From assembly GCA_964387145.1 (NCBI GenBank), contig CAYLVM010000003.1, positions 2,407 through 66,406 on the forward strand: a DNA stretch of 64,000 bases, given 5' to 3'. The translations under genes were made by a program, and so were the position numbers. Shown here piece by piece: positions 10,467 to 34,550 of this stretch (the first letter of the stretch is position 1; every line of letters starts with the position of its first letter). The stretch comes from an uncultured Acidimicrobiaceae bacterium. GTDB taxonomy: Bacteria > Actinomycetota > Acidimicrobiia > Spongiisociales > UBA5794. The notes beneath the pieces are model-generated. The model did no database searches and was not told the origin of the DNA. It worked only from the letters and a program-made list of their open reading frames with translations.

Positions 10467-11996
10467 TCAGGCCTCATCTGCCTCGGCTGCTCGCTCATAC
10501 GCAGCCTTGTTCAGCGCAGAGACCATCGCCCTCGCAGATCCCTCGACGACGTCCGTGGACACGCCGGTCCCTGCGTAGGTCGCCGATCCAACCTTGATGA
10601 TCACATTGACGTTCGCCATGGCATCGGCACCAGAGGTCAGTGGCGAGACCCGGTAATCGACGAGGGTTGCCGGAATCGAGTAGGCGTCCTGGAGCGCAAC
10701 GAACGTCGCGTTCACCATGCCGTCACCCTCGGCCTTGGACACCTGCGTGTCGCCGTTGCGCTCGAGCGTCACTGTGGCGACGGGAACATCCTGTGAACCA
10801 CCAGAGACATGGATTCCGGCGAGTGACCACTCTCCGGTGTCGAGTGTTGTCTCTGCAGCGACGATCGCCTTGATCCCTTCCTCCGAGATCTCGCCTTTGC
10901 GATCTGCGAGCTCCTTGAATCGAGCGAAGCAGTGGGCGAACTCGTCGTCGGCCAGCGAGATACCGAGCTTCCCGAGGGCGTCCGCGAACGCTGCCCGGCC
11001 CGAGTGCTTCCCGAGGACGATCGTAGAGTGCTGACCGACCGTTTCGGGGTCCATGATCTCGTAGGTCTCTCGATTGCGCAGGACACCGTGTTGATGGATC
11101 CCCGACTCGTGGGCGAAGGCGTTGCGGCCGACGACGGCCTTGTTGTACTGGATTGGATACCCCGTCAGGCTCGACACGAGGCGGGACGTCTCGAAGATCT
11201 CCGTGGTGTCTGCATCGATCTCCACGTCGAAGTGATCCGGCCTCGTCGTGATCGCCATGATGATCTCCTCCGTGGAGGTGTTCCCAGCGCGTTCACCGAT
11301 GCCGTTGATGGCCCCTTCGATCTGACGTGCACCGGCATGGATCGCAGACAGCGAGTTCGCTACGGCGAGTCCAAGATCGTTGTGGCAGTGCGTCGAGATG
11401 ATCACATCTTCGTTACCGCCGCGAACGTCGGTGAACACCCTCGTGAGCAGTTCCACGAAGTCTTCCGGCATCGCGTACCCGACGGTGTCCGGGATGTTGA
11501 TCGTCGTTGCGCCGGCTTCGACGGCGGCCCGACACACCTCGACGATGAAATCAGGATCCGAGCGTGTTGCATCCTGAGGGGAGAACTCGACGTCATCGAC
11601 GTAGCGCTTCGCTCGCGCCACACCTTCACGGGCAGCGACGAGAACCTGAGCAGGTGTCATCCGGAGCATCTGTTCCATGTGGATCGGCGACGTCGACGTG
11701 AACACGTGGATGCGCTTGCGGTCGGCACGTTTGAGAGCATCGGCTGCCTTGTCGATGTCATCGGGGTGTGTCCTGGCCAGCGTCGCTATGACGGGTCCCT
11801 TCACCTCCGCAGCGATGCGCGATACCGATTCGAAGTCGCCGGGGCTCGACGCGGCGAACCCGGCCTCGATCACGTCGACCTTGAGCTTGGCGAGTTGCCG
11901 TGCAATGGCGACCTTGTCATCGGGGGAGAGGGCAATTCCGGGCGCCTGCTCGCCGTCGCGTAGTGTGGTGTCGAAGATGATCAGTTTGTCGTTCAT
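10467..11996 (-). CDS. leuA: 2-isopropylmalate synthase
   Basis: 509 aa; [10 protein letters not shown] motif, [14 protein letters not shown]. Confidence 0.9.
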
Positions 11997-12029
11997 GGAT
12001 ATGCCTTTCGAAGGAGGATCAGGACTCGC

Positions 12030-12053
12030 GTAGCCGGCCGCACCGCCGGCTAC
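12030..12053 (-). terminator. GC-rich 9-bp hairpin between ilvC and leuA (partial terminator or processing site)
   Basis: GTAGCCGGC-loop-GCCGGCTAC, preceded by a second short CCTCC/GGAGG hairpin at 12068..12081; no U-tract. Confidence 0.35.
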
Positions 12054-12089
12054 CGAAGTCGGGTGATCCCTCCGGCGGAGGCAACGGAG

Positions 12090-13103
12090 CTATACATCGT
12101 CTTGTGGAGTCTTGGGGACGAGGAACGTCATCATGTCACGCAGCTCCCTCCCTGTGGTCTCGACGGGATGAACTGCGATCGCCTCGCGGGCTGCCGCGAG
12201 TTTCGGTGCACCGTTCGCGTACTCATCCATCCACTCGCGGGCGAACTCACCCGACTGGATCTCGGAGAGGATCTTCTTCATCTCGGCCTTGGTATCTGGG
12301 GTGATGATGCGCGGCCCCCTCGTGATGTCGCCGTACTCGGCGGTGTCCGAGATGGAGTGACGCATCCACTCGATGCCACCTTCCCACAGGAGGTCGACGA
12401 TCAGCTTGAGTTCGTGGAGCACCTCGAAGTAGGCCATCTCGGGTTCGTATCCGGCCTCAGTGAGGGTCTCGAAGGCGGCCTGGATGAGTGAGTCGACACC
12501 ACCACAGAGGATGACCTGTTCACCGAAGAGGTCGGTCTCGGTCTCGGCGTCGAACGTCGTCTCGATAACGCCACCCCGCGTCCCACCGATGCCGTGCGCG
12601 TACGACAGACCGAGCCGTTTGGCTTCCCCCGTCGCATCCTGGTGGATCGCAAGCAGCGTCGGGACGCCCGATCCCTCGACGAACTGTCTCCGCACGAGAT
12701 GGCCCGGGCCCTTGGGAGCGACCATCACGACATCGACGTCGGGTGGGGGAGTGATGAACCCGAAGTGGATCGAGAACCCGTGAGCGAACAACAAGGCGTC
12801 ACCGGAGCTGAGGTTCGGGGCGATGACCTGCTCGTAGACGGTCGGCTGTACCTGATCGGGGACGAGCACCATGATGACATCTGCCCACTCGACTGCTGTG
12901 GCTGGGTCGACGACCTTGAGGCCTGCATCGGATGCGGCCCGGAATCGTGGAGAGCCATCACGAAGGCCAACGACGACGTCGACGCCGGAGTCCTTCAGGT
13001 TCAGCGCATGGGCGTGGCCCTGGCTTCCGAAACCGAGGACGGCGACCTTGCGGCGGGTGATGAACCCCGGGTCGGCGTCCGCTTCGTAGTAGATCTTTGT
13101 CAT
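12090..13103 (-). CDS. ilvC: ketol-acid reductoisomerase
   Basis: 337 aa; [20 protein letters not shown] motif. Confidence 0.92.
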
Positions 13104-13115
13104 AGTGGTGGCTCC

Positions 13116-13619
13116 CTACGCCGATTTCCGTTGTTTCTTCGATGCCGATTTGGTGTCTCTTGCGAGAACGATCCGGCCGGACTTGACGAGGCTGACGATC
13201 CCATACGTCTTCATGATCTCGAGGAAGTCTGCAAGGTGTGATGGTTCGCCCACGACCTCGAAGGTGATCGTCTGGACTCCGACATCGACTGCCTTGGCTT
13301 CGAAGATCGTTGCTGCGTCGAGGATCTCGCCGCGACGCTGCGCCTCGGCGTTGACCCGCACGAGCATGATCTCACGTTCGACGGCTTCGCCGGGGGCGTG
13401 TTCGACGACCTTGAGGGTGTGGATCAGCTTGTAGAGCTGCTTGACGATCTGCTCCATCTCAGGGCCGTCGACGACGACGGTCATGCGTGACCGGTTCGGA
13501 TCTTCGGTGGGCCCGACGGTGAGAGAGTGGATGTTGAAGTCCCTCCTCGCGAACATCGACGACACCCTGGCAAGCACACCCGGCTTGTTCTCGACGGTGA
13601 CTGAGATGACGTGCTGCAT
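13116..13619 (-). CDS. ilvN: acetolactate synthase small (regulatory) subunit
   Basis: 167 aa ACT-domain protein (VENKPGVLARVSSMFARRDFNIHSLTV) directly downstream of ilvB. Confidence 0.9.
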   Translation of the reverse strand: MQHVISVTVENKPGVLARVSSMFARRDFNIHSLTVGPTEDPNRSRMTVVVDGPEMEQIVKQLYKLIHTLKVVEHAPGEAVEREIMLVRVNAEAQRRGEILDAATIFEAKAVDVGVQTITFEVVGEPSHLADFLEIMKTYGIVSLVKSGRIVLARDTKSASKKQRKSA

Positions 13620-15334
13620 CAGAGATCCTCCGGTCCCATGAGGATCTCGTCGTTCGATCCTCCCGCTTTGATCATCGGGAACACCATCGCGTCGGGGTCA
13701 CAGACGAACTCCATGACGACGGGACGGTCGTTGATCGCCAACGCCTTTTCGATGGTTGGTACGACCTCGTCGGGTGACTCTGCACGGAAGCCGGCGCACC
13801 CGAGCGCTTCGGCGAGCATCACGATGTTGGGGATCGATGAGGACAACTCTGTCGCGCTGTACCGGTTGTCGTAGAAGATCTTCTGCCACTGTCGGACCAT
13901 GCCGAGGTTCGCGTTGTTCATGACGGCGATCTTGACGGGGATCTTCTCGACCGCAGCGGTGATCAGCTCCTGGAAGGTCATCTGGAAGCAGCCGTCACCG
14001 TCGATGGCGACGACGGTCGTGTCCGGCATGCCGGCCTTTGCTCCGATCGCAGCCGGTACGGCGAACCCCATGGTTCCGAGGCCACCGGAGTTGATCCACG
14101 TGTTCGGCTTCTCGAATCCCCAGAACTGGGACGCCCACATCTGATGCTGTCCGACACCGGCGATCACGATCGTGTCGGTGTCGGTTCGTTTGGAGAGCTC
14201 GTCGATGACGTACTGCTGGAGTATCGGGCCGTCGGGTTGCTGGTCGTAGGCGAGTGGGAAGTCCCTCTGCCACGCGGCGATCGTCGAGAGCCACTCGGAG
14301 CGTTCCGGGGATGGTGCACCGTCGAGAGCTCGCTCTCCCGCCTCGATCAACTGTTGGAGCACAGCTTTGGCATCTCCGACGATCGGAACGTCGGCCTTCC
14401 TGATCTTGCCGATCTCAGCGGGGTCGACGTCGACGTGGATCACTTTGGCGTTCGGTGCGAAGAACGTGGGATCCCCGGTTACACGATCGTCGAAGCGGGC
14501 ACCGATCGTGACGAGCAGGTCGGAACGCTGCATCGCCGTCGAAGCGGTGTAGGTGCCGTGCATACCCGACATGCCGAGTGTCAGCGGGTGAGAGTCGGGG
14601 ATCGCCCCTCGTGCCATGAGCGTTGTCACGACCGGGAGGTTCTGCTGGGTTGCGAACTGCACCAGCTCCTCGCTTGCACCGGCTCGGATGATGCCGCCCC
14701 CTGCATACAGGACGGGTCGCTCGGACTTCAAGATCAACTCGATCGCCGACGTCACCTGGCGGGGGTGCCCCTTGACGGATGGCTTGTATCCGGGGAGGTC
14801 GAGCTGCCCGGGGCCTCGCCAGGACGTCTCGTCGACGAGGGCGTCTTTGGTGATGTCGACGAGTACTGGCCCTGGTCGCCCGGTCGACGCGATATGGAAC
14901 GCCTCGCGGATCGTCGATGCGATCTCATCGACGTTGGTGACGAGGTAGTTGTGCTTCGTGGCCGGCATGGAGATCCCCCAGGTGTGGGCCTCCTGGAAGG
15001 CGTCGAGGCCGATCGAGCGGGAGCCGACCTGTCCGGTGATCGCGACGACGGGGATCGAGTCCATGTAGGCGTCGGCAAGCGGTGTGATCAGGTTCGTCGC
15101 TCCGGGACCCGACGTGGCGAAGGTCACACCGACGCGGCCCGTTGCGTGGGCGTACCCCGCAGCCATGTGGCCGCCGCCCTGCTCGTGACGGGCGAGGACG
15201 TGGCGGATGGAACTGTCGTACAGCGAGTCGTATGCACGAAGGATCGCTCCCCCGGGCACCCCGAAGATGATCTCTACGCCCTCGTGCTCGAGAGCTCGTA
15301 TGAGGATGTCTGCGCCTGTGAGTTGCTCGCCCAT
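13619..15334 (-). CDS. ilvB: acetolactate synthase large subunit
   Basis: TPP enzyme motifs (GDGCFQM...N); start taken at [11 protein letters not shown] (ATG 15334..15332) after the GGAGAAG RBS. Confidence 0.9.
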
Positions 15335-15350
15335 GATCTGTCTTCTCCGG

Positions 15351-15380
15351 AAAAACGAAACCCTCCGGGACACGGAGGGT
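15351..15380 (-). terminator. attenuator terminator hairpin plus U-tract upstream of ilvB
   Basis: Perfect 7-bp GC-rich stem CCCTCCG/CGGAGGG with a 5-nt loop, followed by TTTCGTTTTT on the ilvB coding strand. Confidence 0.55.
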
Positions 15381-15406
15381 TGGGCGCATCGCTTGGTCTG
15401 ATGCGC

Positions 15407-15445
15407 CTATATAAGAATGAGTACGACGTTGAGTGGTGTGTTCAT
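15407..15445 (-). CDS. ilvL: ilvB leader peptide (12 aa, MNTPLNVVLILI)
   Basis: Tiny ORF immediately upstream of ilvB; 7 of its 12 codons are Leu/Val/Ile; followed by the hairpin GGCGCATC...GATGCGCC and then the terminator hairpin plus T-tract. Confidence 0.6.
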   Translation of the reverse strand: MNTPLNVVLILI

Positions 15446-15536
15446 TTGGTGTTCCGCCCCGTAGAGCGCCACGCAAGTATTGCACCATGTGCTTTCATGT
15501 CAAGATGACCGGACCAGCGGGCACAAGATCGAACCG

Positions 15537-16739
15537 ATGATGGCAGCTCATGAGCGCTCGATTCTGCACAACGTGATCGCCGTTGCACGCCGTGAACTGG
15601 CGGACAGAGACGCCGATTCGGTTCCCGTCCGTCTCCGGCGTGTCGCAAAGAATTCGTCGCGGACACTGCCACCACCGTTCGCAGACTCCGTCCTTCGCGA
15701 GGTTCGAGAGGACCCGGTGTTCAGAGATTCGGTGAGGGATCGCTGGGATCAGGAAGGGGTCGATGATGCCATCGGACGGAACTTCCTCGAGAACCCAGAG
15801 GACGCCAGGCTCGAGATCGTCGAAACCTCCAGGGACGTACAGCTCCGTGATCTCGAGTGTGAGCTCACCGCGGCACGCGAGAAGATCGAGACACTCCAAG
15901 AGCGCCTGGTCGAGGCCAAGAAGAGGCTGTCCAGGGTGCGAGCAGAACACGAGATCGCTCTGCATCGACGCCAGAAAGCCGAGGATGCATCGCGAGCGGG
16001 GTTGTTGCGTACGATCGGGCGGTACGAGGCGGAGGTGCGCTCGGGACACCACGAAAGGGGAGAGCTCACCGATCGCATCGATGAGCTCGAGGCGGCTCTC
16101 GAGGTTGCAGAGGAGCGTGTCGTACGTTCGGTCGAACGAGCCGCCCGGCGCCGTGCCCCCGTGTCGGCACCGAGAGATGTGCATCGTGCCCAGCCACCGA
16201 AGGATCCCATAGCCTTCGCCACCTGGCTCGATACGATGGAGCGGACACAACGACCGTATCGTGAAGCCGAGCGCGTGAACGCGGTCGGCAGCACACCCCG
16301 GCCGATCACGATTCCGAGTGGGATGCAGCCTGATACCCGTGAGGCGGTCTCGGCCGTCATCGCCCAGCAGCCATCGCTCGTCGTCGTCGACGGGTACAAC
16401 GTTTCGGGAACGTTCATGCACGACGACTTCTCCTCTCATGCGGCTCGGGTATCGGTCATCGCCAAGGCGGAGCGTCTCGCTGCATCATGCGGTTCAGGCG
16501 TCGTGGTCGTGTTCGACTCGTCCGACGTCGAGGGCAGGCCATCGTTCCGATCCACCGGTGGCGTCGATGTCGTGTTCTCACGGAACTGCACGGCTGACGA
16601 CGAGATCGTCGAGATCGTCGAGAGTGTCGGCGAGCGAACCGTCGTCGTGACGACCGATCGGGAACTGCGAGAACGATGTGCACGGTACGGTGCCGTCTCG
16701 CTGTGGTCGAACGCCTTTGTGGAGTGGGCGAACTGCTAA
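15537..16739 (+). CDS. NYN-domain (YacP-like predicted RNase) protein with N-terminal coiled-coil
   Basis: C-terminal LVVVDGYNV...VVVFD...TADDEIVE...VVVTTDREL matches the NYN/YacP pattern; start uncertain, since the ORF opens at 15480 inside the ilvB leader region and the ATG at 15537 is the first plausible one. Confidence 0.55.
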   Translation: MMAAHERSILHNVIAVARRELADRDADSVPVRLRRVAKNSSRTLPPPFADSVLREVREDPVFRDSVRDRWDQEGVDDAIGRNFLENPEDARLEIVETSRDVQLRDLECELTAAREKIETLQERLVEAKKRLSRVRAEHEIALHRRQKAEDASRAGLLRTIGRYEAEVRSGHHERGELTDRIDELEAALEVAEERVVRSVERAARRRAPVSAPRDVHRAQPPKDPIAFATWLDTMERTQRPYREAERVNAVGSTPRPITIPSGMQPDTREAVSAVIAQQPSLVVVDGYNVSGTFMHDDFSSHAARVSVIAKAERLAASCGSGVVVVFDSSDVEGRPSFRSTGGVDVVFSRNCTADDEIVEIVESVGERTVVVTTDRELRERCARYGAVSLWSNAFVEWANC

Positions 16740-33460: not shown

Positions 33461-33871
33461 CTACTGCTTGGGACGGGAGTCGACCGCGCCGGGGATGCGC
33501 TGCATGCCGATCAACGCCTTGTACCTGTGGATTCCCGGCTCGAGAGTCGAGTAGTCGAACTCGAAGACATCACCCTCGGCGAGGGTCGTCTCGAAGTTGC
33601 CGTCACTGTCGACCAAGACGTACTCCCGCGGATCCTCGTTGATCCACTGGACGATCCATATCTCGTCGAGGTCGATCTTGAGGTTCGCCGGCCGAAAGAC
33701 GCCGTTATCGATGAGAACCACCGTCACGCCCTCAGGTGGTGGCTCGGTCGTCGTCGTCGTCGTTGGCTGACGATCTGCCTCGATCGTCGATGCCGACGGG
33801 GTGGAGGTGTTGAGTGCACCGAGTACAAGCAGGACTGCGAACGCGCCAACGACCAGCAACATCGACTTCAT
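33461..33871 (-). CDS. secreted protein with signal peptide and Thr/Pro linker, hypothetical
   Basis: MKSMLLVVGAFAVLLVLGA signal peptide, TTTTTTEPPPEG linker, and a C-terminal ~90-aa beta-rich domain. Confidence 0.5.
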   Translation of the reverse strand: MKSMLLVVGAFAVLLVLGALNTSTPSASTIEADRQPTTTTTTEPPPEGVTVVLIDNGVFRPANLKIDLDEIWIVQWINEDPREYVLVDSDGNFETTLAEGDVFEFDYSTLEPGIHRYKALIGMQRIPGAVDSRPKQ

Positions 33872-33881
33872 GATGCTTCGG

Positions 33882-34550
33882 CTATCCAAGGCGCTCCTCG
33901 ATCTCGGTGGTGGGAGTGTACCTGTCCTCGATTCCTTCGCAGCGTCCGGTGCACGCTGACGGTTCCCACAGGGAGGTCTCCACCCAGCTATCGGATCGGG
34001 TAGATACGAGCGCGGTAGCCGACGCGTGCCCCGGCGGATCGCGACGCAGGTCTGACAGCGGTCGCCCCAAGAGCTTCAGACGCACGGCCTGGATGGGGTC
34101 CTGATGGCCGACCATCGCAAGGACCCGCTGCCCGGCACCGAACGAGTCGTATACGGCACGAACCATGCGTTCGGCGATGGTGTGGATCGACTCGACGACA
34201 TCGTCGAGGGCCGCAGCGTTCCTCAGATACCCTGTGAGCTGCTCGTGATGCATCTCGTCGACCTCAACCCATCGAAGCCCGGTCCATCCCGGATACATCC
34301 TGGCCTCGGTGAGACGCACGTCGGGGCGGACCTCGAGACCGTGGTGTGCAGCGATCGCTGCTGCCGTGTGGCGTGCACGGGGCAAGGGTGAGGACACGAC
34401 GACATCGATGGGGACGGTGTCGAGGTGACGCCCCACTGCGTGGGCTTCGAGCACGCCGAGCGGGGAGAGGTCGAAGCCGGGAAGATCGGCGTACACGACA
34501 TGATTCGGGTTGGCGACTTCGCCGTGGCGGATCAGGATCAGCGTGCGCAT
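33882..34550 (-). CDS. histidine phosphatase family protein (phosphoglycerate mutase-like)
   Basis: LIRHGE catalytic RHG motif at the N-terminus. Confidence 0.75.
   Translation of the reverse strand: MRTLILIRHGEVANPNHVVYADLPGFDLSPLGVLEAHAVGRHLDTVPIDVVVSSPLPRARHTAAAIAAHHGLEVRPDVRLTEARMYPGWTGLRWVEVDEMHHEQLTGYLRNAAALDDVVESIHTIAERMVRAVYDSFGAGQRVLAMVGHQDPIQAVRLKLLGRPLSDLRRDPPGHASATALVSTRSDSWVETSLWEPSACTGRCEGIEDRYTPTTEIEERLG

Follow-up and report, generated by a model that had tools for sequence, protein, structure and literature searches.

We found that, in the window (the whole stretch of DNA that we analysed, 64 kb in length, from an uncultured Acidimicrobiaceae bacterium), the ilvB gene is preceded by a short leader that most probably acts as a ribosome-mediated transcription attenuator, which would sense the supply of leucine, valine and isoleucine and control the genes ilvB-ilvN-ilvC-leuA. 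The regulatory logic that we propose is drawn by analogy with the tested leaders of Mycobacterium tuberculosis and Corynebacterium glutamicum, and the leader is the Acidimicrobiia version of a well-known actinobacterial switch by which a shortage of these amino acids steps up their synthesis, and is ordinary in function. The original prediction for this DNA had placed a leader-peptide attenuator for branched-chain amino acids (BCAA) in front of ilvB, and this reading gained support from the ilvBNC-leuA operon, from conservation throughout the class and from the M. tuberculosis and C. glutamicum precedents.

Downstream of the leader, on the minus strand, four genes make up the operon ilvB-ilvN-ilvC-leuA (10467..15334), each with an NCBIfam equivalog match: ilvB at 13619-15334 (E 1e-272, with a full-length acetolactate synthase large subunit match from 15334), ilvN at 13116-13619 (E 3e-56), ilvC at 12090-13103 (E 1e-159) and leuA at 10467-11996 (E 7e-209). 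The leuA gene is of the bacterial type (509 aa) and, as it follows ilvC in the same orientation after 93 nt, control by the ilvB attenuator is probable here as well; leuA of other Actinobacteria has a separate leader, the LEU element (PMC1262725). On the other side of the leader lies a divergent ORF (15480-16739, plus strand) that had been named as an NYN-domain gene. Its domain stood, as an NYN_YacP match restricted to residues 301-415 (the last 115 residues) was obtained, with no match in Pfam or NCBIfam for the first 300 residues, whereas its real start is uncertain: the TTG listed as its start falls on the ilvB promoter, which makes a shorter gene probable.

All parts of the leader lie on the minus strand of the window. 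A promoter-like site (15476..15503) consists of a -35 TTGACA at 15503-15498, the hexamer to which the original prediction had pointed, a 16-nt spacer and an extended -10 TGcAATACT at 15484-15476, amounting to 10/12 consensus matches with the TG present, and many related loci have a TGnCATACT box equivalent to this -10 ahead of their mini-ORF. Judging from these motifs, transcription would start near 15470-15468, ~25 nt upstream of the leader ORF. Upon folding, the 5' UTR of ~24 nt gave a small hairpin ahead of the leader ORF (CGCUC-UACG-GGGCG, 15455..15468), and a weak Shine-Dalgarno (SD)-like GGCGGA stands 7 nt upstream of the leader-ORF ATG. The closest relative of the window (L001, 95% identical) has a different 5'-UTR sequence that also folds (GCCC-CAUA-GGGC), and in many other relatives the leader ATG is found within ~12 nt of the -10 box, which makes these mini-ORFs leaderless or nearly so; hence, the 5'-UTR hairpin is not general.

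The leader ORF (uORF) itself, MNTPLNVVLILI, runs from the ATG at 15445 to the TAG at 15409-15407 (15407..15445) and has 12 codons, followed by the stop: ATG AAC ACA CCA CTC AAC GTC GTA CTC ATT CTT ATA TAG. Seven of the 12 specify Leu, Val or Ile (CTC, GTC, GTA, CTC, ATT, CTT, ATA), with the sensor codons GTC-GTA-CTC-ATT-CTT-ATA at 15427-15410 and the GTA at 15424-15422. The G of the TAG stop is also the first G of a hairpin, which we call A (15383..15407; dG -14.2 kcal/mol), in which the 5' arm GGCGCATC (GGCGCAUC) at 15407-15400 pairs over 8 bp with the 3' arm GATGCGCC (GAUGCGCC) at 15390-15383 around the loop AGACCAAGC. A single unpaired nucleotide, C15382, separates A from a candidate terminator T (15351..15381; dG -15.3 kcal/mol), where AACCCTCCG (AACCCUCCG) at 15381-15373 and CGGAGGGTT (CGGAGGGUU) at 15367-15359 form 9 bp around the loop UGUCC, followed by the U-tract TTTCGTTTTT (UUUCGUUUUU) that ends at 15351; the centroid structure contains both hairpins. 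The ilvB SD GGAG (15348-15345) and start ATG (15334-15332) complete the region (15332..15348). The mini-ORF with its seven Leu/Val/Ile codons, read directly from the ilvB strand, the stop within an 8-bp hairpin, and the GC hairpin with U-tract next to it were thus as first described, apart from the ilvB ATG, which had been placed 35 nt further on and which we measured at 16 nt past the last U and ~25 nt past the terminator stem. A short conserved word occurs right behind the U-tract in most loci (15341-15350 in the window, and the equivalent positions in L001-L080), reading C/G-GUACCC, CAUAUC, CUAUCCGGAG or UGUAUCCGGAG, and where the spacer is short, this word runs into the ilvB ribosome-binding site.

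Within the window alone, the numbers were modest. One terminator-like site was found in 1.4 kb, compared to 0.6 expected, which is not significant alone, and the fold z-score of the leader was only -1.9. A scan of both strands of the 64-kb window for ATG mini-ORFs with a BCAA-rich end (5-25 codons, with at least 6 I/L/V among the last 8 codons) returned two. The second of these, MRTTVTPSGGGSVVVVVVG at 33711-33770 (plus strand), is antisense to a repeated ACG stretch in a minus-strand ORF (33461-33889) and, as no hairpin or terminator follows it, we regard it as an artefact and not an attenuator. The N-terminus of that minus-strand ORF (reverse complement of 33830-33889) resembles a signal peptide by eye.

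Comparison with related loci was far more informative. A scan with IlvB, keeping one genome per species, yielded 80 loci with 66-95% identity, all of them from metagenome-assembled genomes of Acidimicrobiia or unclassified Actinomycetota, and the series of parts seen in the window recurs upstream of ilvB in these loci. A covariance model, R1, that we built from 50 of the related loci matched 76 of the 80, in each case with a single match immediately ahead of ilvB and on its strand, and its matches include loci outside its seed; in the window, it matched 15349-15437 with 73.8 bits. The loci that R1 did not match were three with a different upstream region and one that is truncated, such that 76 of 79 evaluable loci were recognised. 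The window and L001 (95% IlvB identity) are identical from the leader-ORF ATG through the terminator stem, while the flanks differ. Taken as sequence, the ilvB leader element is real and conserved. The three loci without the attenuator (L057, L058 and L062) share another conserved stretch ~100-170 nt upstream of ilvB (..TTTTTTG(C/T)TT(T/C)AAT..GCATAGCAT(T/C)C(C/A)ATA(G/A)GTTG..), with a GTG start, which suggests that the attenuator was replaced there by a different regulatory element.

The mini-ORF was conserved as a reading frame, as the original prediction would have it. An ATG...stop frame with ..LVLI.. was present in 65 of the 68 loci that match the first terminator pattern, a count that leaves aside the 12 of the 80 loci outside this pattern. 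Around the Val codon, Ile, Leu and Val codons swap with one another between loci (for example GUC GUA AUC CUU CUC, UUC GUA GUA AUC CUC, and CUC GUA GUC CUU AUC), which is the pattern of a translated sequence and not of an RNA motif. The leader codons are strongly biased to rare synonyms, GUA above all: upon comparing the codon shares in the last nine codons of 64 unique uORFs with those in ilvB coding sequences, we obtained 78% vs 4.2% for GUA (Val), 30% vs 5.3% for CUU (Leu), and 38% vs 7.2% for AUU (Ile). GUA is also present in the leaders that we recovered from Nocardia, Tsukamurella and Nonomuraea. Since Acidimicrobiia, Corynebacterium and Mycobacterium all retain a GUA sensor, it is apparently a particular rare tRNA, and not the amino acid alone, that selection acts on.

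The alignment supports both hairpins. Overall, 95.6% of cells were paired and 7 of 11 pairs showed changes on both sides, with both values exceeding those of all 500 shuffles and of all slid controls. For hairpin A, 94% of cells were paired and the covariation was located in its upper part, where two-sided changes of inner pairs occurred in 20 and 25 of 50 sequences; for T, 97% of cells were paired, and the U-tract is near-invariant in relatives, as are the stem bases of both hairpins (GCGCA/UGCGC in A and, as the core of T, CCCUCC/GGAGGG). The two hairpins are tightly packed. Among 72 unique loci, the linker between A and T measures 0 nt in 18, 1 nt in 29, 2 nt in 11 and 3-5 nt in 14, so that 81% of the loci have a linker of 0-2 nt, and A and T have no nucleotide in common in any of the 72. 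Between the GUA and A there are 17 nt in the window, and of 54 parsed loci, two-thirds have 14-17 nt (the range of 3-17 nt includes low values that come from extended hairpin boundaries or an out-of-frame GTA), and the stop codon overlaps the first bases of A or falls inside A. In folds with a masked ribosome footprint, A remained intact with the ribosome at the GUA, whereas its 5' arm was removed with the ribosome at the stop. The uORF, A and T keep a fixed spacing, whereas the distance from T to ilvB varies between 11 and 72 nt across relatives. By this predicted layout, A occupies the position of the antiterminator in a classical attenuator. When the 5' arm of A is masked in the window, AAGCGA (15389-15394) can pair with UCGUUU (15353-15358) in the interrupted U-tract (minus strand), a pairing that is probably incidental because it is not conserved in relatives.

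Classical attenuators have four segments that pair as 1:2, 2:3 and 3:4, with segment 3 being common to the antiterminator and the terminator. Such mutually exclusive structures were part of the textbook architecture originally claimed for this leader, and here the claim failed: an antiterminator that shares nucleotides with T was not found in the 72 unique loci, neither in the folds nor in the alignment. Upon folding 68 loci, the probability of T was ~0.95 without a ribosome, with a ribosome at the GUA and with a ribosome at the stop. When the transcript was cut before the 3' arm of T, the 5' arm of T was paired in 26-32%, with no difference between the ribosome states, and its partner, where paired, was an SD-like CGGAG upstream of the uORF that is missing in many relatives. 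The alignment of the Acidimicrobiia elements contained no conserved alternative helix. Several specific candidates were rejected. Pairing between the loop of A and the 3' arm of T (compare the P1-loop:P2a model of Narunsky et al.) was no better than with shuffled loops (mean z 0.07). An antiterminator formed by the 5'-UTR UACGGGG(C)GG and the 5' arm of T was marginal in energy (-26.7 vs -26.4 kcal/mol), did not depend on the position of the ribosome, and is missing from most relatives, where the uORF is often near-leaderless. Pairing of a 'CCUC' in the uORF with the 3' arm of T occurs in some sub-families only, is absent in the window and is explained by codon choice, and an extension of T into the 3' arm of A, or of A into T, lacks complementarity. 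In the absence of mutually exclusive pairings, the regulation needs another explanation.

A 2005 study predicted BCAA leader peptides, together with terminators, ahead of ilvB in Corynebacterium, Mycobacterium and Streptomyces and described the mode of regulation as 'not clear' (Seliverstov 2005, PMC1262725). The Corynebacterium element is the ilvB-II motif, with which a reporter was repressed in rich medium (Narunsky et al. 2023, PMC10272879), and a mutational study of C. glutamicum ilvBNC favours a model with three hairpins, in which antiterminator and terminator adjoin at their bases and compete for a common GCC trinucleotide, the control codons are CUU/GUA, and mutants of G110-G112 show that the lowest terminator pairs matter (Ryabchenko et al. 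2025, PMC11857589). For M. tuberculosis ilvB1, a 2026 report describes a terminated leader RNA of 120 nt, a uORF occupied by ribosomes and a regulatory GUA codon (PMC13236596), and in Streptomyces lividans the leader peptide IlvL, MRTRILVLGKRVG, is transcribed leaderless (PMC8079986). The literature that we searched made no mention of such an element in Acidimicrobiia.

The resemblance to Corynebacterium is close in plan. In both, a short uORF with CUU/GUA control codons stands at or near the 5' end, a GGCGC...GCGCC hairpin (the antiterminator H2 in Corynebacterium) has its 5' arm at the uORF stop, and a CCCUC...GAGGG terminator with a U-tract follows right after, with the bases of the hairpins adjacent. 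By its position and its GGCGC/GCGCC stem, hairpin A was confirmed as the counterpart of C. glutamicum H2. However, unlike in Corynebacterium, the Acidimicrobiia leaders have no H1 (P1) anti-antiterminator helix around the uORF, which is unpaired in both the consensus and the single-sequence folds; the uORF has 8-14 codons instead of 15-17 and mostly stops just before the hairpin and not inside it; and the element spans ~95 nt from uORF start to U-tract, compared to 115-135 nt. Upon re-folding nine published ilvB-II sequences, GGCGCYUG paired with CAAGCGCC in most, and the last three bases of the CAAGCGCC arm were the first three of the terminator, whereas in the Acidimicrobiia leader GCGCC is followed by C-AA-CCCUCC and the overlap is 0 nt instead of the 3 nt of the shared GCC. 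With an nhmmer profile of 50 Acidimicrobiia elements, the scores of the nine ilvB-II sequences did not exceed those of shuffled decoys, and the only words common to both elements are GUA, GGCGC/GCGCC and CCCUC/GAGGG. With no H1, no common boundary trinucleotide and no profile similarity, the leader is a compact two-hairpin variant and not a member of ilvB-II.

Other actinobacterial leaders were compared as well. Those of M. tuberculosis (compared by its published description), Nocardia, Tsukamurella, Nonomuraea and Streptomyces likewise have L-V-(V/I/L) sensor codons that include GUA, a hairpin that is masked by the terminating ribosome, and, ahead of ilvB, a Rho-independent terminator. Only 0-1 nt separate this hairpin from the terminator in Nocardia, Tsukamurella and Nonomuraea, where the folds predict that the two form together, as in Acidimicrobiia. 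Beyond the Acidimicrobiia, R1 reached only Tsukamurella (22.7 bits, E 0.0075) and Nonomuraea (18.6 bits, E 0.084), with weak matches that were correctly placed. Unlike in most Acidimicrobiia, the uORF of these genera crosses the 5' arm of the hairpin (..G-R-R-V..) and stops in the loop, an arrangement found among the Acidimicrobiia only in six loci (L024, L028, L031, L032, L033 and L039). It is the chromosomal-type ilvB of Nocardia, Tsukamurella and Nonomuraea that carries the BCAA mini-ORF and terminator (several of the PLSDB 'plasmids' that we used are plainly chromosomes, such as an 11.85-Mb Nonomuraea record), and upstream of the plasmid ilvB paralogues of Rhodococcus and Streptomyces (L082, L083, L086 and L087) no BCAA mini-ORF or terminator was seen by eye. 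With the enterobacterial trp, his, leu, ilvBN and ilvGMEDA attenuators, the leader has in common that a leader peptide with cognate, often rare, codons sets the position of the ribosome and that this position decides whether an intrinsic terminator acts; it differs from them in having two independent hairpins, with no segment in common and no 1:2 protector.

We propose the following sequence of events for the Acidimicrobiia leader. When BCAA-tRNAs are charged and plentiful, the ribosome would reach the UAG, where its footprint would unwind the 5' arm of A, and with A melted, transcription would end at T and the U-tract, short of ilvB. Under scarcity of a BCAA-tRNA, the ribosome would stall 10-17 nt upstream of A, such that A could fold, which would lessen termination at T and allow the operon to be transcribed. 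How A would act on T is a matter of tentative judgement, and our best guess, to which we give somewhat less than even weight, is that A blocks T sterically. The lowest pairs of T would have to close well inside the polymerase's RNA exit channel, beside the RNA-DNA hybrid, and a stable helix A at 0-2 nt from the base of T may keep them from closing, an effect that a ribosome stalled close behind A may strengthen; the terminating ribosome, by melting A, would turn it into a flexible single strand that permits termination. The linkers of 3-5 nt in 14 of the 72 loci weaken a purely steric model. That attenuation works by adjacency instead of competing base pairs throughout the class, and apparently also in Nocardia, Tsukamurella and Nonomuraea, is a wider claim that we consider less likely than not.

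The predicted coexistence of A and T in every ribosome state, together with the lack of an alternative pairing, is also what one would expect if A were merely a pause (synchronisation) or transcript-stabilising hairpin and T a constitutive partial terminator, with any BCAA control residing elsewhere, for instance in a protein regulator at the promoter. Codon mutations in the S. coelicolor ilvB leader, reportedly without effect (Craster 1999, as cited in PMC1262725), point the same way. Yet this reading leaves unexplained why rare BCAA codons are conserved, why these codons are spaced from A such that a stalled ribosome just spares A and a terminating one melts it, and why A and T lie so tightly adjacent, and a reporter result in M. 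tuberculosis ilvB1, in which replacing LVVI by AAAA abolishes induction, argues for codon sensing (PMC13236596). We therefore consider it unlikely.

Sensing by the ribosome with termination at T, as we prefer, can also be set against control of ilvB translation, through masking of its ribosome-binding site or through re-initiation, in favour of which one may note that the 5' arm of T (CCCUCCG) could pair with the GGAG region of ilvB and that the SD begins just 3 nt past the U-tract. We judge this improbable, as T has the form of a canonical GC stem with 6-10 U behind it, the predicted folds leave the ilvB SD free of pairing, and the T-ilvB distance is the one that varies, in contrast to the fixed distances from uORF to A to T. 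Even less credence is due to a ligand- or protein-dependent riboregulator (a ppGpp riboswitch, a T-box or a protein site) with an incidental ORF, for which regulation would hang on the CUCGUACU nucleotides and not on the peptide. The nucleotide conservation is indeed unusually strong (CUCGUACUY and the two stems), but the conserved single strand lies in frame between start and stop and varies by swaps of BCAA codons, the structure consists of two simple hairpins only with no conserved internal loops, and Rfam 15 (considering ilvB-OMG, the ppGpp/ykkC riboswitches, T-box and known amino-acid leaders) gave no relevant match even at E<=10 in 15000-16000 and none at gathering score across the window. 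A chance co-occurrence of mini-ORF and hairpins, with which the terminator count and the fold z-score of the window alone would be compatible, is excluded for practical purposes, since the whole element is kept in 76 of 80 relatives, in one copy per locus, at the same place and with covariation.

Overall, the finding provides a regulatory annotation for ilvBNC-leuA throughout the Acidimicrobiia, a class for which metagenome-assembled genomes are almost the only source, and with R1 a model that covers an element for which Rfam has no family. The points of interest are the GUA sensor codon, which is phylum-wide, and the hairpins that touch and do not overlap; predictions of attenuators by mutually exclusive folds would miss or misjudge leaders of this kind. 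If the adjacency reading is true, it would explain why thermodynamic folding fails to predict the regulation of these actinobacterial ilvB leaders.
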